NCBI GenBank assembly: GCA_947463125.1
Contig: CANHQZ010000002.1
Coordinates: 46,951-110,950, forward strand
From: Flavobacteriales bacterium
Lineage (GTDB): Bacteria; Bacteroidota; Bacteroidia; NS11-12g; UBA955
DNA: 64,000 bases
Direction: 5' to 3'
In this document: positions 7,201-58,809 of the stretch, in pieces
Position numbering within the stretch: the first letter of the stretch is position 1
Layout of the letters: each line of letters starts with the position of its first letter
Program-made: the position numbers and the translations under genes
Notes under the pieces: model-generated
Databases searched by the model: none
What the model saw: the letters and a program-made list of their open reading frames with translations, nothing else
What the model was told of the DNA's origin: nothing

Positions 7201-7445
7201 AGGAAAAAGAACTGCAGGCTGAAATTGACAGGCTGAATTTAATCATCCTGCAGTTGAATGCGGATGTTAAAGCGCGTCAGAATTCACTGGATGACCTAAA
7301 AGAGGCATACGAAAAACTCGAGAACAGCAATGCTGAACTGGCAGGCAGAATAAAAACCATGCAGGCCGAACTCGATTTGCTGAAGAATCAGATCAACACA
7401 CTGCGTATGCAATTAAAAGAATGTCAGGAGGCAAGCGGCAAATAA
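4221..7445 (+). CDS. Secreted hypothetical protein: putative outer-membrane beta-barrel domain fused to a long Cys-rich coiled coil
   Basis: It has a signal peptide. The first ~520 aa are Gly/aromatic-rich beta-type sequence ending ...GANVYFGVRLKL. From ~aa 540 to 1074 it is an uninterrupted heptad-type coiled coil with repeated KRIAELEAEL-like units and about 20 regularly placed Cys residues. Confidence 0.6.
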   Translation: MFIIIYKSVLMKNNITKSILLASAVILTAKLHAQQTIGLQMGNHNASYAYALNPAQTYSSKNRFYFNFWGAGAGFTNNFLTYSAPFSLWQMGAGNYPDKYKNAAGNLDFNPSWLKLDGNTDNWKLYYLDEAYGPSMHFRITPRTAIGFGIKSVAGMSITGVNKNLGNLFKFGLDSNGQGFSGPNGAQIGVDYDISRFSINTDKWQEWFFSLAGVTRDKGRHFTKWGATGKMLLGMGAAHLGSTGGTYRFNNYNQVQFNNLQSTWFHTDDESATRTLTSPFGMKFDFLQGGGLGADIGFMYENRPEKGRKRYNNPWFDCLDEDKNEYRWRFGSSLTDLGFIVYGGQNRLINNKNATWNVNRNLVNTYQGFGTDPLTNVSTGFYDSLNSDAANNFVTTTPAALNVQFDRSFGNDFYLGVNWTHSLKGDYAWGVRRASFLSAVPRWETEHAEIGMPLTLTRDYEQLNVGLYGRLGPFTLGTDNLAGIMKYASKGEYTGANVYFGVRLKLEACGWWYYRSKEYKDSVRNTKTEVQKNDTFWKRDTITVIKRDTIRKTDTVVKYKNTEVRPDLRNKEEELRKKEAELRAKEEDLRKREQNITGTGGNCKACQDELLFVRQQLTNTRDQLSRIRTQLDDCNRNKAVITAENEDLKKRNAALAAEVDKLKRENAVLRLNTNPCDRQVRSRDSLLAVERERNARIQAELDKKKADCDIVQKELDNTKKRVSVLEAEVAEGKKRIAVLETELSNCRLGNAGSNADCLNRVKQLEAQIAAEKQKNAALEKDLADTKVKLDAEVKKNATLMLDLDACRKASALDKKRIAELEALLKNSNSGDCGPFKQRIAELEAEVATLKANQDKQTKTISELEAKLKNGSGSEELNKCKADLEAARKRIAELEAELVNIKKQRDQYQAELEANKKKVAELEAKLKDCESKGNSCTECEEELAQIKIQLEQKENAYNALREEQKACIKALESTRAKLTEAENKLKNGAGDKSNKEKELQAEIDRLNLIILQLNADVKARQNSLDDLKEAYEKLENSNAELAGRIKTMQAELDLLKNQINTLRMQLKECQEASGK
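6360..7010 (+). repeat. Intragenic degenerate tandem repeats (GAACTGGAAGC core) encoding IAELEA coiled-coil units
   Basis: The core ...(att/gtg)gc(a/t)ga(a/g)ctgga(a/g)gc... recurs at ~6373, 6427, 6667, 6733, 6799, 6889 and 6973. Spacings of 54 to 240 nt give the repeated (K/R)(I/V)AELEA peptide. Confidence 0.5.
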
Positions 7446-7467
7446 ATTGGCCGTATGCAATCAACGA

Positions 7468-7494
7468 AAAGGGCGTCTTATGACGCCTTTTTTT
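7468..7494. terminator. Bidirectional rho-independent terminator between convergent genes
   Basis: GGCGTC-ttat-GACGCC hairpin flanked by an A-run 5' and a T7 run 3'. It lies in the ~50-nt gap between the stop of 4221..7445 (+) and the stop of 7496..9949 (-). Confidence 0.75.
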
Positions 7495-7495
7495 A

Positions 7496-9949
7496 TTAGA
7501 ATTCTGCCCGTAGCCGAATATTCAGCCTTCTTCCTGTAAGGTATTCGGGCACGCCGTAAACATTGTTTTCAATGTCTTTTACCCAGTTGTAGGAAATAAC
7601 ATTGTTGATTCCCAGAATATTGAAAATCTCTACGCTAATCCAGGTTTCCTGCAGTTTTCTGAGTAGGCCGGTTCTGGGTCTGTCTTTGTCATTTCGGCTC
7701 AGTATTACCTTGCTGAACCCCATATCCAGCCTGCGGTAAGGTGGAATGGTGTTGGGACGCGCCGCATATCGGCTTTGTCCATCGAGAAAATAAGGCATAC
7801 CGGTTCCTATAATCATATTCAGGTTTACACGGAATGTAGGATTACCGGGCAGCTGGTCCTGAAGCATAGCGGCAAAATTGACCCTTCTGTCCGTGGGTCT
7901 TCTCAGCCATTCGCTTTGAACCAGTTCTCCACTGTTGTTGGTGTAATTGATTCTCTCGCGGGTTTGCAGTACGCTTAGGGTAAACCAGCTTTCCAGTCCT
8001 TTGATAAATTCTCCGTTTATGCGATTGTCTACACCCCAGGCATAGCCCGAGCTGCTGTTTTCTGCATAATAACGAACGCGGATATTGTCGTATAGATAGG
8101 GAACCAGCCTGTCAAGATGTTTGTAATACGCCTCGGTGGTGAATTTGAATTTGCGGCTCCACATGTATATGAACCTGTCGGTACCCGCCACCAGGTGCCA
8201 TGCCTGCTGTGCCTGCAATTGCCTGTTTAAAACCCCTGAAAAGTTGCGCAACTCCCTGAAATAGCCCTGCTGAAAATAGCCACCCGCTGCCAGTTTGATG
8301 ATTTTATCCTTCTTTTTCAAACTGTCGGGCAAACCTGCATTTAGCTTTTTGTTGGGCTCCCAGCTGAACTGAAGCCTGGGAGTAACAAAAAATTCATTGT
8401 TTACCTGCCACCACTGCCCTCGCAACCCCACATTCAACCACATATTGCGCTGTTTGTCCAGCCTGAATTTGTTTTGTACAAACCCCTGTACCCGAAAACT
8501 TTCCAGTGTATTGCGTGAATTTACCTGGTCATCCAGAATGATACTGTCTGAAGCAAAGCCAAACGGGCGAATGTTGTACATCGCACTGTCATTATAGCGC
8601 CACTCTTTGTAGCGGTCCGATATGCGTTCATGGTTTACACGTAAGCCATATTTGAAAATATTGCGTTTATCGGGCTTGGTGAAAGTGCCAATGTGTGAGA
8701 AGTTGAGAATACGGCTCTGTAATCGGTTTCTGCCATGGTCCAGAAAATAGCCAAAGCCCAGCGTTTTGAGCGGTTTGCCGTATGTTTTGCTTCCCATGTC
8801 CCGGTCAAGCAGGCTCAGCTGGTAAGCTCCTTCAATATCAAACAATTCCTGCTCTGAGGTTCCTGTTGCGCTGAAAATCCACTTGAATTCTTTGCCTGCA
8901 TCCGGATTAAACTTGAAGGTAAGCGCTCCCATAGCATAATCATAATTCATCTGCTCGGCTCCGGCCATGCCCACATCCAGCTGATAAGCCTGAGAAACGG
9001 TTCCAAACTCGGTTCTTCTGCTTTCAGGTGTAAGGTTGTAGCGGTTCAAAGCCATATTACCCAGAAATTCTACCTTCCAGCGCCTCCACAATTTGCGGCT
9101 AATCAGCGTTTGTACATCAGCAAAATTCATGCGGTAGGCTCCCTGAAGATCCAAACTTCCGGTAAGTAATGAATTGCTAAAATGCCTCACACCCAGAATT
9201 GCTGATGTCTTTTTTGTTTTTCCTTCAATGGCAAAACTGTTCAGCAAAAGCCCGGCTGTGGCTGAAACGGAAAAAGCTGTGGGTTGCACGTATTCCACAT
9301 CCAGCACACTGCTCATTTTATCTCCATACTGGGCATCAAAACCACCGGCACTGAATTTGAGGGTTTTAACCAAATCAGGGTTGATGAAACTTAAACCTTC
9401 CTGCTGTCCGCTGCTGATAAGCTGAGGACGGTAAATTTCAATATCGTTCACATAAATCAGGTTTTCATCATAGTTGCCTCCGCGAACGCTGTATTGGGAA
9501 GACAATTCGCTGTTGCTGTTGGCACCCAGTGTTTTGATGATAGCCTCAATGCCTCCGGTGGTGGGGTTCATGCGCAAATCGCGGGGTCTGATTTCATCTA
9601 GAAACGGCGTGTATTCTTCACGGCCCGAGATTTCAATTTGAGGCAAAAAATCCAGTCCGGTTCCTTCGTAGATCACCCTTTCCACCTGTGCTGACCAATC
9701 TTTGGGCAGTCGATATCCGAAAATCTTGCGGTTTCCCTGATATCCAAAAATCAGGTTGGTTAAGGGTATAGTAAAATCACCGTTATTGTCCGTTATCGCC
9801 AGCGTTTCACCATTGCTGTTTTTAATGACAATGCCAACCGCGGGATCGCCGCTGATTAGCCTGACTTTTGCCCAAAACATGGTTTTTTGCTGTGCATGTA
9901 ACTGCCCGATAATGCATAAAAGCAGCGCGAGGCAGGATTTTTTTAGCAC
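7496..9949 (-). CDS. TonB-dependent receptor-like outer membrane protein with an N-terminal carboxypeptidase-regulatory-like domain
   Basis: It has a CarboxypepD_reg-like segment (VGIVIKNSNGETLAITDNNGDFTIP) followed by plug/barrel-like sequence. The C-terminal residue is Phe (...RLRAEF). The track ORF extends to 10048. A GTG at ~9949 gives a canonical signal peptide, MLKKSCLALLLCIIGQLHAQQ, so the start was trimmed to 9949. Confidence 0.7.
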   Translation of the reverse strand: MLKKSCLALLLCIIGQLHAQQKTMFWAKVRLISGDPAVGIVIKNSNGETLAITDNNGDFTIPLTNLIFGYQGNRKIFGYRLPKDWSAQVERVIYEGTGLDFLPQIEISGREEYTPFLDEIRPRDLRMNPTTGGIEAIIKTLGANSNSELSSQYSVRGGNYDENLIYVNDIEIYRPQLISSGQQEGLSFINPDLVKTLKFSAGGFDAQYGDKMSSVLDVEYVQPTAFSVSATAGLLLNSFAIEGKTKKTSAILGVRHFSNSLLTGSLDLQGAYRMNFADVQTLISRKLWRRWKVEFLGNMALNRYNLTPESRRTEFGTVSQAYQLDVGMAGAEQMNYDYAMGALTFKFNPDAGKEFKWIFSATGTSEQELFDIEGAYQLSLLDRDMGSKTYGKPLKTLGFGYFLDHGRNRLQSRILNFSHIGTFTKPDKRNIFKYGLRVNHERISDRYKEWRYNDSAMYNIRPFGFASDSIILDDQVNSRNTLESFRVQGFVQNKFRLDKQRNMWLNVGLRGQWWQVNNEFFVTPRLQFSWEPNKKLNAGLPDSLKKKDKIIKLAAGGYFQQGYFRELRNFSGVLNRQLQAQQAWHLVAGTDRFIYMWSRKFKFTTEAYYKHLDRLVPYLYDNIRVRYYAENSSSGYAWGVDNRINGEFIKGLESWFTLSVLQTRERINYTNNSGELVQSEWLRRPTDRRVNFAAMLQDQLPGNPTFRVNLNMIIGTGMPYFLDGQSRYAARPNTIPPYRRLDMGFSKVILSRNDKDRPRTGLLRKLQETWISVEIFNILGINNVISYNWVKDIENNVYGVPEYLTGRRLNIRLRAEF

Positions 9950-28310: not shown

Positions 28311-29009
28311 GTGGAATTTCCGGTAGAAATCCAGAACGCAACCATTTACCAGGGCCGAATCCCGGTGCTGAATGAGGTGAATATTCGCATCAACAAAGGC
28401 GAGTTTGCGTATCTAATTGGTAAAACGGGTTCGGGTAAGTCCAGCCTGCTTAAAACCCTTTACGGTGAACTTCCGCTAACGGAAGGAACCGGTAATGTAG
28501 CTGGAATCGGTTTGCAAGATTTAAAAAAGGCACAGATTCCTTATCTGCGCAGAAAACTGGGCATTGTTTTTCAGGATTTTCAGTTACTGACCGACCGCAG
28601 CGCCCTGGATAACCTTTTGTTCGTGCTCAAAGCTACGGGCTGGAAAGACAAACAGCAACGCATTGACAGGGCCAATGAGGTTCTTGCCAAAGTAGGGCTG
28701 GAAAACAAAGGGTACAAAATACCGGCAGAACTAAGCGGTGGTGAACAGCAACGCCTGGTTATTGCGCGTGCACTCCTGAATAACCCCGAGGTGATTCTGG
28801 CCGATGAACCCACCGGAAACCTGGATCCCGATGTCTCCGACGAGGTAATGCGCATGTTGCAGGATGTTTGTAAGGAAGGACGCTCTGTGGTTATGGCAAC
28901 CCATGATTACCGGCTCATTGAAGAGTTTGGCGGTACCATCTACCGCGTGGCAGGTGGTAAAGTCAACAAAATAGATTCTCTCAAAGAATTAGTGCCGAAT
29001 CAACAGTAA
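28311..29009 (+). CDS. ftsE: FtsE-like ABC transporter ATP-binding protein
   Basis: Intact Walker A GKTGSGKSS, signature LSGGEQQRLVIARAL, Walker B ILADEPTGNLD. The ~230-aa size is typical of FtsE/LolD-type ATPases. Confidence 0.65.
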   Translation: MEFPVEIQNATIYQGRIPVLNEVNIRINKGEFAYLIGKTGSGKSSLLKTLYGELPLTEGTGNVAGIGLQDLKKAQIPYLRRKLGIVFQDFQLLTDRSALDNLLFVLKATGWKDKQQRIDRANEVLAKVGLENKGYKIPAELSGGEQQRLVIARALLNNPEVILADEPTGNLDPDVSDEVMRMLQDVCKEGRSVVMATHDYRLIEEFGGTIYRVAGGKVNKIDSLKELVPNQQ

Positions 29010-30512
29010 GGTTCTGGCGGCATTTGCAGCATCAATCATATAGGTTCCATCTGACAAATCTGAAACGGAAATCGTTCCTGAAACCGATCTGATCGTTTTT
29101 ACCAAAGTCCCATTGATCTGGAAAATGCGTACATATTTGCCGATGAAGGCCGGCGAATAAACTTCATTTTGTGCAGGATTGGGGAACAATGCAATATTCT
29201 GCTTTTTATCAATCGTATTGCCTGCAGGATAAATCATTTGCTGCAAAGCGGTGGTTGTGCGCTCGCTGATATAGGGTTTCACACCAAAACTCACATGGTT
29301 GCCCCAGGCTTTGGTATCGGCTTGCTGCCAGTCTGCGAGCGTAAAACCATAGTCGGAAGCCCTGGCTCCCGTGAAGTAGGGATCAGCAGCCACCGCCGCT
29401 GCCACGATAGACTTGTGGTTATCAATAATGGCAAACAGGCTGTCTGCCTTGTAAGCACCGTCAATCAGGTTTCGCAATTCCTGTTCATAAGCCATTTTCC
29501 ACCGGGTCACCCCAAGTATTTTATAGGTAAGGGGAGCTTTTGAGTTAGTCAGCTTGCCCCAGGCATGAATATTTCGTTTTTGGATATCGCTAACACCCCA
29601 TTGCACACCGAATGTATTATCCATGTCGTACGGTATGTATACAAAGCGGTTATCCGACATTCTGTGGTAAAGGAAATAATTGTTTTTATTGTAAAAGTAA
29701 TTGTCCCAGTGCCCCATCAGAACCTCTGCCGCCAGCACTTTCAGATAGGCATTCACATCAAAAACCTGCTCAATCCAAGATTCAAAGGAATCTTTTGGGC
29801 TGTTGTTGATTACATTGATAAAATAAACAAGATCACTGTAATCATCGGCGACGGTATTGGTTTTCAATTCATAAGCCCGCTCATTCAGGGGAGAAGGATT
29901 GATTAGGTCTTTGTAAGGTTGCTGGAATGAACCCAGCCAGCCCAGATCTGCAGGCCAGCTGCATTTGTAGAGGTTTCCTATGCTTTCGCCAAATCGGGAT
30001 TGGAGAAATGTTTTATCGATGTATTCTGAATGGTTTCTCAATCCCTGATATGTGCCATTTACGTACAACCTGACAGGATTACTGCGCGTTGCAACAATTC
30101 CGGCCCGGGCCAGAAATCGTGCACTGAGAAATTCCCGAACCAAGGAAGGATCGTTGTGGTTGCCATTCAGGTTCATGTTTTTCAGCCCCTGATAGGTTTG
30201 GCTCTGAAATGCACCCAAATCCAGGCGGTAGCCTCTCTTCTCCGCTTCACGGGATGAATTTCCTTTCACACGCATTCCGATATTGCGCAGCGTGTCTTTT
30301 TGATCGTAAATAAACAATGAAGAAAAATAAACATTGTCCCATACGTTTTTATTCATCTTCGTCCAGCTGTCCTTGGGTAAGAAAATATCGACACGGTGGA
30401 TTTTATTGTCGTAAATAGTTCCGTTTTGCGGCCATACGGCTTGCTGCGCCTCCAGGTGCCGCGTTGGAAGCAGAAAAGTCACGGCCAAAAAGAAGCAGCG
30501 GAAGATTTTCAT
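28989..30512 (-). CDS. CotH-family (atypical kinase fold) protein with a T9SS C-terminal sorting domain
   Basis: Signal peptide, then a CotH-like core. The C-terminal ~80 aa (LFPNPAQNEVY...GTLVKTI...SDLSDGTYMI) are a type-A Por secretion tail. It overlaps the upstream membrane-protein gene by 4 nt. Confidence 0.7.
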   Translation of the reverse strand: MKIFRCFFLAVTFLLPTRHLEAQQAVWPQNGTIYDNKIHRVDIFLPKDSWTKMNKNVWDNVYFSSLFIYDQKDTLRNIGMRVKGNSSREAEKRGYRLDLGAFQSQTYQGLKNMNLNGNHNDPSLVREFLSARFLARAGIVATRSNPVRLYVNGTYQGLRNHSEYIDKTFLQSRFGESIGNLYKCSWPADLGWLGSFQQPYKDLINPSPLNERAYELKTNTVADDYSDLVYFINVINNSPKDSFESWIEQVFDVNAYLKVLAAEVLMGHWDNYFYNKNNYFLYHRMSDNRFVYIPYDMDNTFGVQWGVSDIQKRNIHAWGKLTNSKAPLTYKILGVTRWKMAYEQELRNLIDGAYKADSLFAIIDNHKSIVAAAVAADPYFTGARASDYGFTLADWQQADTKAWGNHVSFGVKPYISERTTTALQQMIYPAGNTIDKKQNIALFPNPAQNEVYSPAFIGKYVRIFQINGTLVKTIRSVSGTISVSDLSDGTYMIDAANAARTLLLIRH

Positions 30513-46251: not shown

Positions 46252-47427
46252 TTATGGTTTTAATTGCCCAACGCCGGGAATGAAAGGATAAAGCAGGTAG
46301 CGGCTGCGCTGGTATTCAAACCGGTACAAATCTTCTTTCCATGAATCGCGTATTTTTTTTATAGAAGTTCCATTTAAAATGGCAGTGCGCAATTCGGTTC
46401 CTCCGGCCAGTTTATCAAAGAAAGGATTGAAGAATTTTTGTTTGTCAGGACATGCATTCAGCAGCATTTCATACCACTCAATGTACAGCTGCCGGCTACC
46501 GGTAATATAATTTCTTGCAAAATCCGTGAGAAGAAATCCACGGCAGGTATCACCCAGAAATGGCGGATTGACAGCTTTTCCGGGAATGTTTCTGGGCACA
46601 AACATGTAGTGCCCGTCTTTGAGCCAGGGTGCGCCAAAACACTCAAAAGGCTTATCTGTGCCCCGTCCCATACTCATTATAGTTCCTTCCATGAGGCCCA
46701 GCGTAGGGTAGAGCATGATACTTTCCTGGGTTGGTAAATTCGGTGAAGGCGGAACGGGCAGAATGTAAGCGGTGTTGTGGTCCCAGTTTTGAACCGGTAT
46801 TACTGTTAAAAGACATGTGTCTGCAGTTCTTAACCATTTTTCGCCATTAATCATGCGAGCCAGTTCTCCCAATGTCATACCATGCACCAGCGGTATAGGG
46901 TGCAGGCCTACCATGCTTTCAAATCCGGGCTTTAGCACAGGGCCATCCATGTAGTGTCCGTTGGGATTGGGCCTGTCCAGAACCAGCAATGGTTTTCCAT
47001 TTTCTGCGCAGGCCTGCATTACGTAATGCAAGGTGGTGAGATAGGTATAAAAACGAACTCCCACATCCTGAATGTCAAAAACCACCATATCAATTCCTTT
47101 CAGGTCTTTTTTGGTTGGTTTTACGTGTTTGCCATACAATGAAATAATGGGCAGTTTGGTTACAGGGTCTATGCCAGAAGCTACTTTTTCGCCATTGGCC
47201 GCATGTCCGCGAAACCCGTGTTCTGGCGCAAAAACTTTCTTCACCCTGATTTTTGAAGCCAGCAAGGTGTCTATGAGATGCCTGTTTCCCACTATAGAAG
47301 TCTGGTTGGCAACCACCGCAATGCGCTTCTTTTTGAGCAAAGGGAAGTACATATCGGTGCGATTAGCACCGGTAATTACAGGTTGTGAATTTGCGATAAA
47401 AGCAAATCCCAAGACAAAAACCATGAA
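46252..47427 (-). CDS. DUF1343-family protein (putative exo-beta-N-acetylmuramidase NamZ-like)
   Basis: ~390 aa after trimming to the Met before the signal peptide (MVFVLGFAFIANSQ). Without trimming, the track's long ORF would overlap the divergent permease gene. The family call is from memory of the DUF1343 architecture. Confidence 0.5.
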   Translation of the reverse strand, partial: FMVFVLGFAFIANSQPVITGANRTDMYFPLLKKKRIAVVANQTSIVGNRHLIDTLLASKIRVKKVFAPEHGFRGHAANGEKVASGIDPVTKLPIISLYGKHVKPTKKDLKGIDMVVFDIQDVGVRFYTYLTTLHYVMQACAENGKPLLVLDRPNPNGHYMDGPVLKPGFESMVGLHPIPLVHGMTLGELARMINGEKWLRTADTCLLTVIPVQNWDHNTAYILPVPPSPNLPTQESIMLYPTLGLMEGTIMSMGRGTDKPFECFGAPWLKDGHYMFVPRNIPGKAVNPPFLGDTCRGFLLTDFARNYITGSRQLYIEWYEMLLNACPDKQKFFNPFFDKLAGGTELRTAILNGTSIKKIRDSWKEDLYRFEYQRSRYLLYPFIPGVGQLKP

Positions 47428-47464
47428 TGCAGTTAACCACTTTTGCTGTACTTTTGAGGCAGCA

Positions 47465-48697
47465 ATGAACTGGCCTTTTTTTCTGGCGCGCCGCTTGTCT
47501 GCTTCCGGGCAGGGTTCCTTTTCCAGATCTATTGTGCGTTTGGCTATTGTGGCTGTAGGTCTCAGTTCTGCTGTAATGATCATTGCACTCTCTACGGTTT
47601 CAGGTTTTCAATCCGGTATCAAAAATAAGGTTATTGGCATAAACGGCGACCTTGTTATTGACGATATTTCCAACACCGAAGGCTCAGAACCCATTCCAAT
47701 GGGAGAAAAGCTATTGGCATTTACACCGGATATACAGGCTGTGAAAGGGATACGGTCGGTTTCTGTATGTGCGGTCCGACCTTGTATTGTGAAGGGAGAA
47801 AGCGAGATTGAAGGCATGATTGCAAAAGGGGTTTCAGGTAGCTATGATTTTACGTTTTTAAAAAATCATCTTAAACGTGGCGTTGTTCCTGAGTTTTCGG
47901 AAGACACGGCAACAGCCATGATTTCAGAAATCACTGCAAACAGGCTTGGTTTGGATACAGGCATGTATATGCAGGCTATCTTTTTTAAGGAAGATAGCAG
48001 TGGTAACCGACGTCCGCGCGCCATCCGACCGCGTATTGTAGGAGTTTTTGCCACCGGGCTCGATGATTACGACAAGGTACATTTTATTACCCATATTGGT
48101 TTGGTGCGTAAGGTTTTACCGGCATCTGCCCGGTTCACCCAATGGGAACTGAGATTGCATGAAAATGTTTCAGCGACAGAAGCTGTTGACAAACTCAGCA
48201 GTAAACTGCCACCCGGAGTTTTTAATGTTCAGTCGGCGGAACGTTATAACCGTCAGATTTTCGACTGGCTGGCATTGCTGGATACCAATGTGGTTATCAT
48301 TTTAAGCCTCATGTTGCTGGTGGCTGTTATTGGCATGTGTACCACATTGCTCATTCTCATCACCGAGCGAACGCACATGATCGGTACCCTGAAAGCCATT
48401 GGTGCAAAAGAGGCAGGTATTCGCAGTATTTTTCAGTATCAGGTGTTGTTTATCACAGGCTTCGGACTTTTACTGGGTAACGCTGTGGGGCTGGGCCTTT
48501 GCTGGCTGCAATATCACTATGGGTTTATTACCCTGAACACAGAAACCTATTATGTAAACAAGGTGCTGATAGAATTTAATCCCATGCACCTGGTTTTGGT
48601 AAATACAGGAACCATCTTTACATGCTGGCTGGTATTGTACCTGCCCTCAAGAGTAGTAGGGCGGTTAAGCCCCATCAAATCCATTAAGTTTCAGTAA
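47465..48697 (+). CDS. LolC/LolE-FtsX family ABC transporter permease
   Basis: N-terminal TM (FSRSIVRLAIVAVGLSSAVMIIALSTVSGF), a large periplasmic loop, and three C-terminal TMs (FtsX fold). The start was trimmed from the track's 47072. Confidence 0.75.
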   Translation: MNWPFFLARRLSASGQGSFSRSIVRLAIVAVGLSSAVMIIALSTVSGFQSGIKNKVIGINGDLVIDDISNTEGSEPIPMGEKLLAFTPDIQAVKGIRSVSVCAVRPCIVKGESEIEGMIAKGVSGSYDFTFLKNHLKRGVVPEFSEDTATAMISEITANRLGLDTGMYMQAIFFKEDSSGNRRPRAIRPRIVGVFATGLDDYDKVHFITHIGLVRKVLPASARFTQWELRLHENVSATEAVDKLSSKLPPGVFNVQSAERYNRQIFDWLALLDTNVVIILSLMLLVAVIGMCTTLLILITERTHMIGTLKAIGAKEAGIRSIFQYQVLFITGFGLLLGNAVGLGLCWLQYHYGFITLNTETYYVNKVLIEFNPMHLVLVNTGTIFTCWLVLYLPSRVVGRLSPIKSIKFQ

Positions 48698-50805: not shown

Positions 50806-50827
50806 GCAAAAAAGGGATTTTATCCCA
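50806..50827 (-). terminator. Rho-independent terminator after the exporter operon (upstream of the gyrB promoter)
   Basis: Plus strand reads A7-GGGAT-ttt-ATCCC. On the minus strand this is a GGGAT/ATCCC hairpin followed by U7, 3 nt downstream of the TolC-like stop codon. Confidence 0.55.
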
Positions 50828-52239: not shown

Positions 52240-53567
52240 TTTTTTGGTTTGGTTGGGCCGGTTTCGGCTTTGTAATAGTCAGGAGGGAATCCATTCAGCT
52301 GTCTCCAGATTTCATACCACACACGAACCCGATTCAATAAAAGGTATCCATTGGATCCGGTTCCAACGCGCAGCTGAGATGGCCACTGTTTACCACCAGC
52401 CTCCGGTGCCACAAGGAGTCGGTATTTGCCATTTACCGAAGGGATGTTGTCAATAGCAAAAACACGCCCGGGAAAAGTACCATAAGTATAATTAGGCCAG
52501 CCTGAAAATACAATCGTCGGCCAACCATCAAACACGAAGTTTACATGCTGACCCTTTTTAACCAAGGGCATATCCATGGGATCAACATACATTTCTACCG
52601 CAAGGTGCACGGAAGACGGCATAACAGTACAAATGGCCTGACCCTCTTTTACAGTTTCTCCTATTCCACTAGCCAACGTCTTAGTAACATAACCGTCCTG
52701 CGGTGCAAGAATGATGTAAAAACCACTGCGTATGCTGTAGTTACTGAATTGGTTTCGTAATTTACTAACCTCTGCTTCGGTCTCCATTTGATTGCTTATG
52801 GCGCTGAATCTTTCACTTTCAGCTTTTGCCATTTTTTCACCGTATTCAGCTGTGACGTTCCGAAGTTCAAATTTTGCGTTTTCCAGCGATGCTTTTGCTG
52901 CTACAAGCTTGTTTTCAGCAGAAATACGTTTTGCAAGACTTTCCTGCCATTTAACCCGCCTGTTTTCAACGTCAAGCGGGCTTTTAATTCCTTTCTTCTC
53001 CAAAGCACTGTCTCGTTGAAACTGCTGACGGGCAATTCTTTCACCGGTTTTGGCAGCTTCTACTTCCGCAGCTTCGCTGTTTACTTTCATCTGCTCCTGT
53101 TCTACTTTGTTTTTCGCCTGCCTTAATTTGAAATCCTGATTGATTTCTAGTTGGGTTATCTGACGGTTAATGGCGTCAATCTTAGAACTGTAGCTGGTAA
53201 TGCTGTTTTCCTTTGCTCTGATCTGCGTCTCAGTTTGCTCAAGCAACTTTGGATCCAGGTAGCTCTCCTTTACTTCGCTGATGCGAACAATGGTGTCACC
53301 TTTTCTTACATAATCCCCTTCAATTACATGCCATTTTTCAATTCTTCCTCCAATGATAGTTTGAATTTCCTGAGGTCGCTGATTAGGCAACAGTGTGGTT
53401 ACAATGCCCTTTGTTTGTATATTCTGTGTCCATGGCAGAAACATGAAAAGAACAAACAGCAGCGATAGCCAGATTAGTACTTTGCTCATCCGTCTTTGCG
53501 TCCAGGGACTCTCTGTCAGCAATAATTCACTCTGGTAAGTTCCGTTTTTTTCTTTCATTAATGCCAT
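52236..53567 (-). CDS. HlyD-family membrane fusion (type I secretion periplasmic adaptor) protein
   Basis: N-terminal TM, a long coiled-coil hairpin, and a C-terminal beta-barrel/lipoyl fold (…GQHVNFVFDGWP…). Confidence 0.85.
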   Translation of the reverse strand: MALMKEKNGTYQSELLLTESPWTQRRMSKVLIWLSLLFVLFMFLPWTQNIQTKGIVTTLLPNQRPQEIQTIIGGRIEKWHVIEGDYVRKGDTIVRISEVKESYLDPKLLEQTETQIRAKENSITSYSSKIDAINRQITQLEINQDFKLRQAKNKVEQEQMKVNSEAAEVEAAKTGERIARQQFQRDSALEKKGIKSPLDVENRRVKWQESLAKRISAENKLVAAKASLENAKFELRNVTAEYGEKMAKAESERFSAISNQMETEAEVSKLRNQFSNYSIRSGFYIILAPQDGYVTKTLASGIGETVKEGQAICTVMPSSVHLAVEMYVDPMDMPLVKKGQHVNFVFDGWPTIVFSGWPNYTYGTFPGRVFAIDNIPSVNGKYRLLVAPEAGGKQWPSQLRVGTGSNGYLLLNRVRVWYEIWRQLNGFPPDYYKAETGPTKPKK

Positions 53568-55243
53568 GTGATATCCTGAATTAACTGTGGAACATTGTTA
53601 GCTGTTATTTTGCCAAGCTCAGTAAAGCCGTTTTCATCCAAAAATAAACAGGAATCTGCTTGTGACAAAACAGGTATCTGATTGCTGATAAAAATGACGG
53701 TGGAGTTTATGTTTCTAATGTGACTCCAAATTGCTTCAAGTTCTTTTTTGGTGAATGCACTCCACACATCATCAATCAAAACAAGCGGGGGAGTATGATA
53801 CAACGCTCGAGCCAGTGGTATTTTTCGCGCAATATTGTTAGGTATGCCGCTTTCAGACTCAAATTCATAGTTAAAACCTCCGGGAAGCGAAGAAACAAAA
53901 GTGTGTAAGTTGAGTGCTTTGCTAAGGTTGGTAAGTTCCGTCAAATCTGGCTCATTTCCGAGCACAATGTTCTGCGCAAGTGTACCTTCAAAGATGTGGC
54001 TTCCCTGAAGACAGATACCGGTAATGCTGCCAAGTCCCTTTCCTGATATGTTTTCAACAGGAACGTTATTCAGCTGCGAAGCGAACTCGGTTTCCATGTC
54101 GCCAATAATGGTTTTTAGTATTCGGGTTCTTCCGGTACCTGGCATTCCGCATATCCCAACTTTCTGGCCGGCTTTAATCACAGCAACAGGTTTACCGCTT
54201 TTCCGATCTACCAGAGTAACCGAGGGCGCTTCTGAAATTATATTGGTTTTAGGGGTGTGTTCAGTTCGGTCGTCTATACTCACATCGGTAACGGAGCCCA
54301 ATTTTTCAAGGGCTATCCCGGCATCATAAACAGATTCTACCGAAATGACAAGTTTTCCCACCGCATCAACCAGCGAAATAATCAAGATTTCTGAAGCCAG
54401 AAACTGCCCAAGACTTATGTCTTCCCGAACCAGTAAAAAGCTTCCAAGAAAGAGCATGGCCATGGTCAAAATAACTTTCATGCCTATAGCTATGGCTGCC
54501 TGATTGTATAAAACTCGGAAATGAGCCTGTCGGCTGTTTACATACCCTTTTAGATATTCGTCTGTTTTCTTCAGATGGAAATTTTGTTCCTGTTTGAGGT
54601 TAAAGGTTACCCTGTTCTGTGCAATTTCGGTAAGCCAAAAAGCAGTTTTAAATTTGTAGTTACTTTCAGCACGAGCAGATTGTACTCCTCTGTTGTAGGT
54701 AGCTCTCAAAACAATGGCAACCAAAATGAGCAATGTAAAGCCAAATAGAAGAAATGCAGGGTGATAGATTGCCAGCAGGATAACGCCAAATAAGATCTCA
54801 AGCAGGGAAGTGGTAAAGCTGAGAAGAATTTTACTAAAACTTTTTTGAACGGTGATAATGTCCAGAAATTTTTCAGACAGCTCCAGAAGACTGTTGTATT
54901 TCTTGAGCAGTTTGGTGGCAGATGCGAGTTTTTGAGAGAAATCGAAGGCAGTGCGAACAAATAATTTACTCTGTATCGATTCTAAAATACTCAACTGTGC
55001 GAGTCCAGTGAGGCCGGAAAGTAAAATGGCCAGAGTGATGAGTACTATCAGGATAAACCAGCTGCTACTAAGTTTTCCTGCCAGAACCAAACCGATGATG
55101 GCCTGAATCCCTAAAGGCACAATCAGGCTGATGGCACCAGCCAGAACGGCATATATGTATAGAAACCGAATGTTTCTTTTTTCAGTTCCCACAAGGCTCC
55201 AGATTCTCTTAAACGGGCTGAGGGTCTCGGGGTATGATTTCAT
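53558..55243 (-). CDS. T1SS-type ABC exporter (fused TMD-NBD) with degenerate catalytic motifs in the nucleotide-binding domain
   Basis: Six-TM exporter domain, then an NBD in which Walker A is GMPGTGRT (Lys to Arg), the signature reads ESGIP instead of LSGGQ, Walker B is LVLIDD (Glu to Asp) and the H-loop His is replaced (FISNQI). It lacks an N-terminal C39 peptidase domain. Confidence 0.8.
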   Translation of the reverse strand: MKSYPETLSPFKRIWSLVGTEKRNIRFLYIYAVLAGAISLIVPLGIQAIIGLVLAGKLSSSWFILIVLITLAILLSGLTGLAQLSILESIQSKLFVRTAFDFSQKLASATKLLKKYNSLLELSEKFLDIITVQKSFSKILLSFTTSLLEILFGVILLAIYHPAFLLFGFTLLILVAIVLRATYNRGVQSARAESNYKFKTAFWLTEIAQNRVTFNLKQEQNFHLKKTDEYLKGYVNSRQAHFRVLYNQAAIAIGMKVILTMAMLFLGSFLLVREDISLGQFLASEILIISLVDAVGKLVISVESVYDAGIALEKLGSVTDVSIDDRTEHTPKTNIISEAPSVTLVDRKSGKPVAVIKAGQKVGICGMPGTGRTRILKTIIGDMETEFASQLNNVPVENISGKGLGSITGICLQGSHIFEGTLAQNIVLGNEPDLTELTNLSKALNLHTFVSSLPGGFNYEFESESGIPNNIARKIPLARALYHTPPLVLIDDVWSAFTKKELEAIWSHIRNINSTVIFISNQIPVLSQADSCLFLDENGFTELGKITANNVPQLIQDITWH

Positions 55244-55368
55244 TGTCTGTTATATTCTTGCAAAATAAGTTGTTTTGGGGCTGTTTTGTTTTATCTGTTG
55301 ATAATCAAAAAAAATTCCATTATTGATAGATTGCTATTTATATGGAAAAAAGTGATATTTCAAAGTGT

Positions 55369-56781
55369 TTATTTCCCCCGGCCCTGAATCATGATCATGG
55401 CAGTGTAAATCATGATTTTTATGTCAAGTCCAAGACTCATGTTTTCCAGGTAAAGAATATCGTATTTCATACGCTCCACCATCTGTTCAACATTTTCGGC
55501 ATAACCAAATTTAACCTGTCCCCAGCTGGTTATACCCGGTTTTATGCGGTGAAGTCTAACATAGTAAGGCGCCTTTTTTACAATCTGCTCAATGAAAAAT
55601 CTCCTTTCCGGCCTGGGTCCTACGATGCTCATTTCTCCCATTAGCACGTTTATAAACTGAGGTAATTCATCAAGCCTCGATTTTCTGAGAAATGAGCCAA
55701 CCCGTGTTCTTCTGGGGTCTTTTTCACTGCTAAGCTGTGGCCCGTTGCTTTCAGCATCCGTGCGCATACTTCTGAATTTGAAAATCTGAAATGTTTTTCC
55801 CTTAAATCCAATTCTTTCCTGTCTGAAGAAAACAGGACCTGCACTGTCTAATTTAATTGCTATGCCGATCAGTAAAAAAACAGGCAGTCCCACTAACAAT
55901 GCCAGCAAACTAATCGAGATGTCAAAAAACCGTTTTGCCGTTTTCTGCCATTGTGGCATTACCTCAAAATCAACCTCCACCAGCATCGCTCCCAATATGT
56001 TGTTCATTTTGACCATTCCCAAAACCATACCGTAGCTGTCAGGAAGGATTTTTAAATGTACTTTCTCATTTTGTATCTGATCGACAAGGCCCGGAACCCA
56101 ATCGTGTTCTTCGTCATCAAGACATATAATAACATCTTCAATACGATATTCCTCAATGACAGCTGAGATTTCATCTTTGGTGCCCAGGCAGGGGAGGTTG
56201 CCCATGTTGGAGCGGGTATGGTCTTTCCCGCTGATATATCCCTGAATAAAAAATCCTTCAGATTTTCTGGCAATAGAAAGTTCATGAAACAACTTCTCTG
56301 CATTGTTGCCATTTCCCACCAGCAGTGTTCGGTATCCCCACTTTCGATGCTGTATCAAATAAATGGTTCTGCTTACCACGACCAGCCTGAGCATTAATGT
56401 TATACCAGTATGCAGTGAAAAATAAACCAGCAGAGACTTGTAATAATCCCGGTAATTGCCAACACTGTCGTCCAAAATAAGCAAAAAGAATATGATAAGG
56501 CTTCCTACAATCCCTGAAATGAAGGTCCTTTCCACTTCACGCAGGCGACTTCGTCTGAAAATATTTTTGTAGTAACCGCTGCCTGCATAAATCAGCAGCC
56601 ACATGGCAGGAATAGCCAGTAAACCTACATACAGCTTCAAATCATTATTTACCGGGATATCATAACCATGCTTACCTGCTTCCACAATGTGCTTTCTGTA
56701 AAGAAAAAAGAGAAGCCAGGCTGAACCTGCTGATATTAAATCGGTGATGACATGCAGTACGATTTGGAATCTGCGGTTCAT
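55369..56781 (-). CDS. Undecaprenyl-phosphate hexose-1-phosphate transferase (WbaP/exopolysaccharide polyprenyl glycosylphosphotransferase family)
   Basis: N-terminal TMs, then a C-terminal bacterial sugar-transferase domain (LDELPQFINVLMGEMSIVGPRPE...KPGITSWGQV). Confidence 0.85.
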   Translation of the reverse strand: MNRRFQIVLHVITDLISAGSAWLLFFLYRKHIVEAGKHGYDIPVNNDLKLYVGLLAIPAMWLLIYAGSGYYKNIFRRSRLREVERTFISGIVGSLIIFFLLILDDSVGNYRDYYKSLLVYFSLHTGITLMLRLVVVSRTIYLIQHRKWGYRTLLVGNGNNAEKLFHELSIARKSEGFFIQGYISGKDHTRSNMGNLPCLGTKDEISAVIEEYRIEDVIICLDDEEHDWVPGLVDQIQNEKVHLKILPDSYGMVLGMVKMNNILGAMLVEVDFEVMPQWQKTAKRFFDISISLLALLVGLPVFLLIGIAIKLDSAGPVFFRQERIGFKGKTFQIFKFRSMRTDAESNGPQLSSEKDPRRTRVGSFLRKSRLDELPQFINVLMGEMSIVGPRPERRFFIEQIVKKAPYYVRLHRIKPGITSWGQVKFGYAENVEQMVERMKYDILYLENMSLGLDIKIMIYTAMIMIQGRGK

Positions 56782-57698
56782 TTTGGATAGCTGAATCTTA
56801 TATTGTCAATAAAAATTTCCTGAGCGGTTTTCAGCTCTGCAGGTTTCATAGGGCTTATCATTAGCTGTATCTCTGTATCGCCGGGCTGGTTGTAAAGCTC
56901 ATAGATAAGGTTAATGTAAAAACGTTTCCAGGTATTTCCGGTCTCAAAAATGTAAACGTAGGGAAGATAGAGTTTTCCTGAACTGTTTTTGCGAATCATG
57001 GCCATTTGAACAGGAACCGGAGTCTTTATGTCAAATTCAAACATGATATCTGTTCCCAAAAACGGAAGATTACCGAAATATTTAAAAGAGGCCATGTCGA
57101 TGACTTTGGCCGTGTCTGCTGCCGCCATCACAACCTTCATGCATCGTGTGTTGCCCAAATATCGGCCTTTTAGAGAAAACGGCTCTGTAACGATATAAGA
57201 AGTGTCGCCGGTTCCCGAAAATAATCGTATGAGACTGCTGTTGTTGTCCTCAAAATCTTCCAGCCAGGGAAACTCTACGTTGTTTTTATAGGTCAGCCTA
57301 ATGTTTCCGGCATGGGTTATTTTACCTTCCTCTAAATCGATGAATGTATCGGTTCTGTTGAACAGCCTGTGAATTACGTGCTGATTTTGAGCTCCATTCA
57401 GACGCACCGAAGGAATGATGGAGAGTTTTCGTCTGCCGGAAAAAAGAACTGGTATGGTAGAGGGAATCTCAAACAGGCCTATAAACTGCTCATCCACGTA
57501 CACATTTACTGCCGAAATTTCATGAATATTGTTTCCCTGAGCCAATGTGGTGCTAACGCTGACCGAGTCAATCCTGATATATGACGGTATTGTTTCTGAC
57601 TCACGGTCACACCCCGATAAAAGAGTAAACATGAGAGTTAGCGCCGGCAATAAAATTCGGAGGCCCATGCTGCGAAAATACAACACTCTTGTCCGCAA
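56778..57698 (-). CDS. Hypothetical lipoprotein
   Basis: Lipoprotein signal (LTLMFTLLSGC). 306 aa, no recognised family. It overlaps the glycosylphosphotransferase start by 4 nt. Confidence 0.5.
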   Translation of the reverse strand: MRTRVLYFRSMGLRILLPALTLMFTLLSGCDRESETIPSYIRIDSVSVSTTLAQGNNIHEISAVNVYVDEQFIGLFEIPSTIPVLFSGRRKLSIIPSVRLNGAQNQHVIHRLFNRTDTFIDLEEGKITHAGNIRLTYKNNVEFPWLEDFEDNNSSLIRLFSGTGDTSYIVTEPFSLKGRYLGNTRCMKVVMAAADTAKVIDMASFKYFGNLPFLGTDIMFEFDIKTPVPVQMAMIRKNSSGKLYLPYVYIFETGNTWKRFYINLIYELYNQPGDTEIQLMISPMKPAELKTAQEIFIDNIRFSYPK

Positions 57699-57721: not shown

Positions 57722-58684
57722 CTACACTTCGTGATACCGTCTTTGAACCTTTTCGGTAATCAATGTAGCCAGTCTGTTCACTTCCAGCATGTTTTCCAGT
57801 GATGAGAGAGGAGTAAGACCTTTGGAAATGTTTTCTTCAAAATTTCTGAATTCCATTTTCCAGGCATCAAAAGGAATAACAGGCCGCTGAATGAGCGTTA
57901 GCTCCTGCTGCTGCTGGGCTTCCGTTTCTTCTAGAAAAGTAAGCTGATCTTTGTTTTCCGTCTGCCTGTATTCATTGAGTGTGTTTTCTGTAAAATCCAG
58001 CGAAAACAATTTGTCCTGCTGGTAAATCTTTAAACGGTGTGTTCCGGGTTCTATAGCCCGTCCTGCGGAAATATGGCAAACTGAGTCGTTATCAAATTCA
58101 ATGTGAATATTGAGTAAATCCGGGTTTTTACCGAATAAAAACAGTGGTCGTGCCGATACGTCCCTGATTCCACACTGGGCAGTTCTGATCACCAGATCAA
58201 GATCCTGGGCAAGTTCTTTAAAAAGCCAGGTTTCAAAACCACCGGGAGCAGGGGGTCTGCACTCCTTTTCCAATTTAATGAAACGTGGCTTTCGCACAAA
58301 CTGGGATGCTGTTGTATACAGTGGTTTATTATATAATGTGTTGGCTATATGGAAACAATTGCCACTTTCTGCGTGCAAACGCATGAGCTGTTCGGTGAAT
58401 CCAATGTTGTTGATTAAAAATCCATCAAGCAGAATATGTTTGCCAAGTCGTGTAAGATTTTCAATCATGGCAGTGTCTATGTGTCTCACATGCCTGTCGA
58501 TGATGAAGACGTCCGCCTGGTCGGCCAACTCAAATACATAAAGCAGGTTCCCCGCAGAATCCGCATTCATATCATGGTCGGGATCATAATATCCGCTGAA
58601 TTGAAAGACCATGCTGTCTTGCAGCAGATGAGCAAAAATTTCAGCTTTACGTTGTGTACCTAGAATGACAGTTTTCAGTTTCAT
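57722..58684 (-). CDS. Hypothetical protein, possibly a Gfo/Idh/MocA-like oxidoreductase fold
   Basis: Trimmed to MKLKTVILGTQRKAEIF..., a Rossmann-like start. The rest is unassigned. It is the first gene of the co-directional cluster. Confidence 0.35.
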   Translation of the reverse strand: MKLKTVILGTQRKAEIFAHLLQDSMVFQFSGYYDPDHDMNADSAGNLLYVFELADQADVFIIDRHVRHIDTAMIENLTRLGKHILLDGFLINNIGFTEQLMRLHAESGNCFHIANTLYNKPLYTTASQFVRKPRFIKLEKECRPPAPGGFETWLFKELAQDLDLVIRTAQCGIRDVSARPLFLFGKNPDLLNIHIEFDNDSVCHISAGRAIEPGTHRLKIYQQDKLFSLDFTENTLNEYRQTENKDQLTFLEETEAQQQQELTLIQRPVIPFDAWKMEFRNFEENISKGLTPLSSLENMLEVNRLATLITEKVQRRYHEV

Positions 58685-58809
58685 GCAAATTTTTGGAGAC
58701 GCCTCTCTTATTTTTGTAACCTGCAGCAAATTTGCAGGACATTAATAAAATTATTTTTTTCGGTTTCTCACACATGTTCACAACCCCACCCATATCTGAA
58801 AGTCCTGTA

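Follow-up and report, generated by a model that had tools for sequence, protein, structure and literature searches.

The DNA described here is a 64,000-nucleotide stretch of contig CANHQZ010000002.1 (assembly GCA_947463125.1, positions 46,951 to 110,950) from a Flavobacteriales bacterium, hereafter called the window. It carries a gene for an ABC-fold half-transporter of 561 amino acids, in which a transmembrane domain (TMD) is joined to a nucleotide-binding domain (NBD) that has lost its catalytic motifs. Genes for a HlyD-type periplasmic adaptor and a TolC-type outer-membrane factor complete the operon (Table 1). The original prediction, a model's reading of the letters of this stretch, had proposed just such an ABC-HlyD-TolC arrangement, and all three genes were confirmed. 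They are tightly packed: the adaptor gene overlaps the stop codon of the ABC gene by 10 nt, and the gene for the outer-membrane factor (OEP family) overlaps the adaptor gene by 4 nt, making the genes translationally coupled. Against the adaptor model TIGR01843, whose cutoff is 208 bits, the adaptor scores 95.6.

Table 1 Features of the degenerate exporter locus (window coordinates, 1-based) and of related loci without a nucleotide-binding domain (coordinates within each locus).
Feature	Position	Strand	Basis
ABC-fold half-transporter gene (TMD-NBD), degenerate NBD, 561 aa, start ATG	53558..55243	-	ORF list, Pfam, AF2, Foldseek
Transmembrane domain, residues 1-320, six long helices and an elbow helix	54284..55243	-	DSSP, conservation
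Codon of Glu285, TM6 motif GQFLASEI, membrane-embedded, family-specific	54389..54391	-	representative alignment
Degenerate nucleotide-binding domain, residues 351-545	53609..54193	-	P-gp NBD alignments, pLDDT, pN and pS
Walker A remnant GMPGTGRT, residues 366-373, Arg372 for Lys	54125..54148	-	P-gp alignment
Q-loop Gln413, retained (CLQGS, residues 411-415)	54005..54007	-	P-gp alignment
I467-P-N-N-I471 at the LSGGQ signature site	53831..53845	-	P-gp alignment
Walker B remnant LVLIDD, Asp491 kept, Asp492 at the catalytic Glu site	53768..53785	-	P-gp alignment
Asn521 at the H-loop His site (ISNQ, residues 519-522)	53681..53683	-	P-gp alignment
HlyD-type periplasmic adaptor, 443 aa, N-terminal TM helix	52236..53567	-	Pfam HlyD_D23, HlyD_3, Biotin_lipoyl_2
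TolC-type outer-membrane factor, 469 aa	50830..52239	-	Pfam OEP 72.5 bits, two repeats
Terminator-like hairpin GGGATAAAATCCC + TTTTTT, directly after the OEP stop	50814..50826	-	consensus match only, weak 5-pair stem
TMD-only gene, locus L087	6001-6957		
TMD-only genes, loci L088, L089 and L092			
TMD-only gene, locus L090	1227-2189		
TMD-only gene, locus L091	884-1867		

Despite its weak sequence scores, given below, the protein adopts a complete type IV ABC exporter fold in its AlphaFold2 (AF2) model; all structure models in this work are AF2 monomers. The confidence is 83.7 in predicted local distance difference (pLDDT) overall and 77-92 in the NBD. Foldseek aligns the model over its full length (about 550 columns, 14-19% identity) to PCAT1, HlyB, TmrAB, MsbA and PrtD, with TM-scores of 0.80-0.87. 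By DSSP, the transmembrane (TM) helices occupy residues 22-54, 60-108, 119-160, 163-209, 222-272 and 278-319, and two short coupling helices are found at 112-115 and 211-216. In Pfam, ABC_tran (PF00005) is passed marginally, with 25.5 bits against a cutoff of 25; ABC_membrane (PF00664) gives 18.9 bits against a cutoff of 28, where relatives score 37-52. The best NCBIfam model is PrtD (TIGR01842; 98.1 bits, cutoff 510), followed by HlyB (TIGR01846; 76.8 bits, cutoff 725), and NHLM and bacteriocin_ABC are matched as well; no curated NCBIfam model reaches its own cutoff on this protein. It has no N-terminal domain, be it C39 or CLD. Judging from these sequence and model matches, the protein is by descent a divergent offshoot of exporters of the PCAT and type I secretion system (T1SS) kind. 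A sequencing artefact is excluded by an identical protein (P0001), present on two independent contigs. We note that P0001 bears the NCBI label 'Sphingomonadales bacterium', probably through a binning error.

In a composite ATP site, one NBD contributes Walker A, Walker B and the H-loop, and its partner contributes the signature. We set the motif equivalences by residue-by-residue HMMER alignment to NBD1 and NBD2 of P-glycoprotein (P-gp). The alignments bear out the earlier claim that the NBD lost its catalytic motifs, and every motif string quoted in its support stands in the 561-residue translation. Arg372 replaces the Walker A Lys (GMPGTGRT opposite GSSGCGKS in P-gp), with the glycine scaffold and Thr373 retained. 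The signature region reads ESGIPNNIARKIPLARAL from residue 464 onwards, without LSGGQ. Opposite P-gp LLLDE lies LVLIDD (LIDDVW spanning residues 489-494), the D-loop is SAFT in place of SALD, and Asn occupies the H-loop His position. In addition, and not noted in the original prediction, the beta-strand bearing the A-loop aromatic is deleted in the window's clade, compared with both canonical exporters and the rest of the family. The Q-loop is intact, as had been predicted: Q413 aligns to the Q-loop Gln of P-gp. The chain is thus defective in both halves of the site, and it could form no consensus site with itself or with any partner.

The window holds its own internal control. A second NBD, at 28311-29009 (+), belongs to a 232-aa stand-alone FtsE-like ABC ATPase with fully canonical motifs: GKTGSGKSS, LSGGEQQR, ILADEPTGNLD and MATHD. 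The degeneracy of the exporter is therefore not due to composition or assembly problems.

Motif loss, selection and gene context across the family

Searching 5.8 billion proteins yielded 233 homologues. More than 50 relatives carry the substitutions of the window protein: at 92% to 43% identity, all homologues have G-x-P-G-x-G-R-T, x-P-N-[NH]-I, D-D and S-N. A survey of orthologues for conserved substitutions had been set as the test on which the original prediction could fall; with R, D and N common to relatives, the finding survives. Below 40% identity comes a much larger set, drawn from Flavobacteriales, Cytophagales, Chitinophagales and Saprospirales, where the Walker A Lys is kept and the signature and H-loop are likewise lost. 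We refer to these two groups as the Arg clade, which includes the window protein, and the Lys clade.

Motifs were counted in 203 aligned members and in 146 representatives (50% identity) that an exhaustive HMMER search had supplied. Among the 203 members, the Walker A residue is Lys in 137 and Arg in 65. The S-G-G of the signature is found in none, Pro taking the place of Ser in 166. At the catalytic Glu position stand Asp (145), Glu (30) and Asn (17), the residue being acidic in 175, and position 491 of Walker B is Asp or Glu in 173. The H-loop His is absent from all 203 members and present in 11 of the 146 representatives. Q-loop Gln occurs in 65 of the 203, essentially the Arg clade, and is lost in most of the Lys clade. 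Within the Arg clade, 59 sequences share the invariant pattern R/Q/DD/N. Most members keep G366, G371, a basic residue at 372 and Ser or Thr at 373; some representatives have no P-loop left at all (for example SDSSLSSSM in P0127 and GDDYPALMR in P0160). Altogether, the full motif set is found in none of 147 sequences, that is, the representatives and the window protein.

These comparisons indicate that motif loss is family-wide and ancient. They contradict the suggestion that the window protein might be a recently inactivated enzyme: loss of the signature and H-loop extends across the phylum, and its own clade adds no more than the Lys-to-Arg change and the A-loop deletion.

The family is large. 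In species-representative genomes (one per GTDB species), two family-specific peptide patterns retrieve at least 590 loci, nearly all labelled Bacteroidota. The exhaustive HMMER search gives 1,050 clusters (50% identity) at E≤1e-30; the best 150 of these score at least 268 bits, compared with 87 bits for the best canonical exporter chain in the PDB. Among its cultivable genera are Flavobacterium, Algoriphagus, Pontibacter and Nonlabens. Annotations in hundreds of Bacteroidota genomes currently read 'ABC transporter ATP-binding protein' or 'bacteriocin exporter with peptidase domain'. A few loci carry stray labels (Akkermansia, Bordetella, Glaciecola, Sphingomonadales metagenome-assembled genomes), probably again binning errors. 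Separately, 53 of the 146 representatives, among them P0070, P0125, P0149, P0156 and P0207, have 135-195 extra residues at the N-terminus, ahead of the TMD. This extension matches nothing in Pfam and no PDB sequence, and might be a diverged C39-like or regulatory domain.

To follow selection on the two domains, we compared the window gene with three close relatives (92%, 85% and 78% identity), using the proportions of differing nonsynonymous (pN) and synonymous (pS) sites. Synonymous sites are saturated even at 92% amino-acid identity (pS 0.72-0.84), which makes dN/dS ratios unreliable, so pN and pS are given separately. The TMD has a pN of 0.03-0.10 and the NBD one of 0.07-0.18, indicating that the NBD is under purifying selection, yet about twice as relaxed as the TMD. 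Together with the intact reading frame, this upholds the earlier argument against simple decay. Across the 203 members, 46 of 300 TMD positions are conserved at 95% or more, compared with 8 of 195 in the NBD: the usual conservation pattern of ABC proteins is inverted in this family. The conserved NBD positions are the P-loop glycines and F418, G420, N425, R479 and P485; the latter five lie near the coupling-helix groove and in the structural core, and the first four of them are nearly invariant in the family.

No NBD motif is as strictly conserved as the family-specific ionisable residues of the TMD. Two of these residues lie in membrane helices, E285 in TM6 and K256 in TM5. The others (E88, K134, K138, E193, K197, R238, H241, K297, D307 and K314) are placed on the cytoplasmic extensions of the helices. 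E88, K134, K197, K297 and K314 are each present in 146 of 146 representatives, R238 in 145, H241 in 139 and K256 in 135, with Arg in a further 8. E285 is Glu in 143 representatives and Asp in 2; its motif GQFLASEI aligns with GQLLAFN of PCAT1, where Asn stands at the position of the Glu.

We then surveyed the genomic context of 84 related loci. A HlyD-type adaptor gene directly follows the ABC gene in all 84, and an OEP gene was detected in 79. Of the five others (L010, L031, L039, L069 and L077), at least four break off within the adaptor gene or shortly behind it. In 43 loci the ABC gene is directly preceded by a TetR gene of the same strand; 9 more have TetR at another place in the locus. 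No other gene family recurs around the 84 loci in an all-versus-all clustering of open reading frames (ORFs), the other recurrent clusters being antisense ORFs, and no cargo protein or bacteriocin precursor is conserved near them. With TetR common upstream and no conserved cargo gene, the operon looks like an autonomous efflux module under local regulation, not like a T1SS for protein secretion. The original prediction had spoken of a T1SS-type exporter in a canonical operon. Its operon layout stands; to call the system a canonical T1SS would be too strong, given 98 bits against the 510 asked for by PrtD, the missing cargo gene and TetR in 43 of 84 loci.

Orthologues without a nucleotide-binding domain

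Some members of the family dispense with the NBD altogether. P0107, P0117 and P0196 are proteins of 318-327 aa made of the TMD only, ending just past the cytoplasmic extension of TM6. P0107 is found on four independent contigs, one of them 107 kb long. Its locus L087 is gene-for-gene syntenic with the window: genes for an M24 peptidase, PCMT, two unknown proteins and a sugar transferase are followed by the TMD-only gene and then by HlyD, OEP, gyrB and an FtsX-type permease gene. In L087 the start of the adaptor gene precedes the stop codon of the TMD-only gene by 8 nt, which leaves no room for a remnant of the NBD. The arrangement at the P0196 locus is the same. Adaptor and outer-membrane genes are intact at the NBD-less loci.

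The three NBD-less proteins represent diverged lineages, with pairwise identities of 50-69%, and their pN of 0.25-0.36 compares with a pS of about 0.77. This mutual divergence, with pN below pS, implies that the NBD-less state is old and maintained by selection. They retain the invariant residues of the TMD, E285 included; E88 is replaced conservatively by Asp. Intracellular loop 2 (ICL2) is shortened, and in the AF2 model (pLDDT 88.9) turns of 3-5 residues join TM2 to TM3 and TM4 to TM5, so that the coupling helices are gone. Foldseek compares this model with the TMDs of ABC exporters at TM-scores of 0.78-0.84, the resemblance being to the TMDs of PCAT and TM287/288; SbmA is absent among the 50 best matches listed.

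When the TMDs are compared by neighbour joining (about 310 columns; no support values, so the tree is indicative only), the NBD-less proteins fall into a single clade. They are grouped with the Arg clade, to which the window protein belongs, and a long branch separates this group from the Lys clade. The order of branching among the NBD-less proteins, the Arg clade and P0056 is not settled by this tree. As read from the sequences, the family is a graded series. In the Lys clade the signature and H-loop are lost; the Arg clade, with the window protein, adds the Lys-to-Arg change and the A-loop deletion; in the NBD-less clade the NBD and the coupling helices are gone.

Energy supply, related systems and flanking genes

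We propose that the window protein belongs to a tripartite exporter that is built on an ABC fold and no longer uses canonical ATP hydrolysis, and we put the probability of this reading at roughly 60%. The protein would be the inner-membrane subunit of a Bacteroidota-specific, envelope-spanning exporter, which joins an ABC-fold protein to a HlyD-type adaptor and a TolC-type channel and is accompanied in most relatives by a TetR regulator. Its functional core would be a TMD dimer that hands the substrate, probably a small molecule, on to adaptor and channel. The TetR linkage and the lack of a conserved cargo gene suggest a substrate of this kind. The NBD would be vestigial and incapable of the canonical ATP-sandwich hydrolysis cycle, since the signature, the catalytic Glu, the H-loop His and the D-loop are lost, and here the Walker A Lys and A-loop as well. 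It would remain attached to the coupling helices in a structural or regulatory role. Binding of Mg-nucleotide or phosphate may have survived in the Arg clade, given that the G-x-x-G-x-G-R-T scaffold is kept together with Thr373, Gln413 and Asp491.

Export would then probably not be powered by ATP hydrolysis at this protein, and the likeliest substitute is the proton-motive force, acting through the conserved ionisable residues of the TMD. We favour proton coupling because these residues are strictly conserved, in the NBD-less proteins too, and because SbmA/BacA offers a precedent: there a type IV ABC fold that has lost its NBD and coupling helices drives alternating access from a proton gradient (PMC13316013). 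That a phylum-wide family gave up ATP hydrolysis and drives its tripartite pump from another source, most plausibly the proton-motive force, is advanced tentatively, at somewhat less than even odds. If true, an ABC exporter would here have become a secondary transporter for a second time, independently; unlike in the case of SbmA, every stage (Lys, Arg and NBD-less clades) would survive in living lineages.

Several observations weigh against these proposals. A Walker A scaffold with Lys or Arg and an acidic Walker B pair survive in most members, and some hydrolysis, slow or unorthodox, might continue, as might a supply of energy from ATP binding by itself. The NBD is under purifying selection and still contacts the coupling helices, with F418, G420, N425 and R479 near-invariant, and its role could be energetic. 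The argument for proton coupling is drawn from residue conservation and analogy, a continuous path among the residues being hypothetical. The NBD-less clade could use a separately encoded NBD, though its coupling helices are gone, and the placement of this clade comes from the neighbour-joining tree of about 310 columns without support values.

The alternatives differ in what they leave the NBD to do. Binding and release of Mg-ATP might set the conformation of the TMD, making the protein a non-hydrolytic, nucleotide-sensing gate for the HlyD/TolC duct. An ATP-binding gate or scaffold had been among the earlier suggestions, and we retain it as an unlikely rival: most members keep the P-loop scaffold, the Arg clade retains all three Mg ligands, the NBD is under purifying selection, and the degenerate sites of CFTR and ABCC1 hold ATP for minutes (PMC7756269). 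However, the A-loop strand is deleted in the window's clade, so that adenine stacking is lost, and the signature, by which ATP would be clamped across the dimer, is missing in every member. Some representatives have no P-loop of any kind, and gating alone gives no energy for uphill export. The deletion of the NBD in sister lineages also points away from a gate; since the operon stays intact there, it shifts our reading from an ATP-binding gate towards a pump without ATP hydrolysis. The same deletion speaks against a slow or unorthodox ATPase, in which Asp492 or another residue would act as general base and a low rate of hydrolysis by the homodimer would suffice. Such an enzyme would fit the acidic residues at positions 492 (175 of 203) and 491 (173 of 203), and Glu-to-Asp variants of ABCB1 keep residual ATPase activity (PMC7756269). 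Yet the Lys, signature, H-loop, D-loop and A-loop are all missing at once in the window protein, and motif residues drift across the family, which is unexpected for a selected catalytic site; we consider this improbable.

Pairing with a canonical half-transporter encoded elsewhere, which would supply one active site to an obligate heterodimer, seems more improbable still. Bacteroidota genomes do carry other ABCB-type genes, and at one locus, L004, the degenerate 735-aa member P0070 has a fully canonical 602-aa ABC exporter encoded 113 nt upstream (6080-7888), perhaps a neighbour by coincidence, perhaps a partner peculiar to that lineage. But this is the only adjacent canonical exporter gene among the 84 loci, where bacterial heterodimeric exporters normally come from adjacent genes. 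A phmmer search of all six-frame ORFs found no other ABC exporter in the window, the hits being the target itself and the soluble FtsE-like NBD, which is not plausible as a partner. With the window chain defective in its Walker half and its signature half, both composite sites would be non-canonical whatever the partner, and the NBD-less orthologues argue against any need for NBD pairing. The unlinked partner suggested by the original prediction is for these reasons unlikely. A decaying pseudogene or strain-specific defective allele, for which the motif loss itself and nothing else would speak, is rejected: the ORF of 561 codons is intact, the same substitutions recur in more than 50 relatives at 43-92% identity, pN is far below pS, the operon is translationally coupled and the AF2 model is confident.

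Known systems resemble the proposed tripartite exporter in part. PCAT1, HlyB and PrtD are the best sequence and fold matches. Like them, the window protein is a half-transporter encoded beside HlyD-type adaptor and TolC-type genes, and the TM6 motif GQ[LF]xA is common to both. Unlike them, it scores 98 bits where 510 are needed, has lost the catalytic NBD motifs, has no C39 or CLD domain and no conserved cargo gene, carries Glu for the Asn of TM6 and has relatives in which TetR is common. In the degenerate chains of TM287/288, TmrAB, BmrCD, MsRv1273c/72c, CFTR, TAP and ABCC1, the catalytic Glu and H-loop His are replaced as they are here. In such heterodimeric exporters one NBD has its catalytic Glu (often to Asp) and H-loop His exchanged, and the degenerate site binds ATP and does not hydrolyse it (PMC7756269). 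In those systems, however, one consensus site is always left, and the two chains are fused or their genes lie together. The window chain has lost its signature too and has no conserved partner gene, so that every composite site would be degenerate; the consensus signature that a degenerate chain provides to the partner site is lost in all family members.

SbmA/BacA (SLiPT) is a proton-driven transporter with a TMD like that of type IV ABC exporters and conserved acidic residues, descended from YddA-like full-length ABC transporters that lost the NBD and coupling helices (PMC13316013). P0107, P0117 and P0196 have lost these same elements. In contrast to SbmA, their origin is independent, the matches pointing to PCAT/T1SS-type exporters. 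SbmA is moreover a stand-alone importer with extra TM0 helices, whereas the present family sits in an operon with an adaptor and an outer-membrane channel, and most of its members, the window protein included, still carry the NBD. The functional parallel to SbmA is a hypothesis by analogy. As in MacAB-TolC, EmrAB-TolC and AcrAB-TolC, an inner-membrane transporter is combined with a membrane-fusion protein and an outer-membrane factor, with a local TetR gene in most relatives; the inner-membrane component is not of the MacB-type ABC, MFS or RND kind. From TetR-regulated efflux pumps the system differs by a type IV ABC fold with a non-catalytic NBD, and the window copy is without a TetR gene.

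Hydrolysis of ATP at composite sites is what defines an ABC transporter, and degenerate sites are, to our knowledge, always paired with a competent one. The family would thus be a natural and abundant counter-example, with both sites of a presumed homodimer dead. A full-text search, with many subscription papers outside its coverage, found neither the family described nor any homodimeric ABC exporter in which both sites are dead, and reviews of degenerate sites, tripartite systems and T1SS make no mention of the family. The series up to full loss of the NBD would provide a comparative system for roles of the NBD beyond hydrolysis, for re-coupling of the type IV fold and for how a tripartite pump is energised without ATP, RND or MFS machinery. 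As the family includes cultivable genera, experiments are feasible. Automated pipelines would count these genes as T1SS or ATP-driven pumps, which is probably wrong.

Some features around the operon complete the picture. Upstream of the window's ABC gene no TetR gene is found, as is also the case at the most closely related loci L005, L085, L086 and L087; at the syntenic locus L003 a TetR gene (7321-8004) lies between the sugar-transferase gene and the ABC gene. The upstream gap in the window (55244-55368, 126 nt) contains TTATTTTG 18-25 nt before the ATG. The Bacteroidetes -7 promoter element is TAnnTTTG, and relative to this consensus TTATTTTG is a near-match only. Further upstream on the same strand come a Bac_transf sugar phosphotransferase gene, 55369-56781 (-), and two genes without a Pfam match, 56778-57698 and 57722-58729 (-). 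All three are syntenic in the Arg clade and the NBD-less clade, and a functional link to the pump, for example in glycoconjugate export, is possible.

On the other side of the operon, a 541-aa ORF at 47072-48697 (+) encodes an FtsX-type permease in its C-terminal ~440 aa only. Because its N-terminal part overlaps a convergently listed NamZ exo-muramidase gene, 46252-47583 (-), the true start of the permease is probably near 47372. At some distance, and in support of a Bacteroidota host, 28989-30512 (-) encodes a CotH-kinase-like protein with a C-terminal sorting domain of the type IX secretion system (T9SS).

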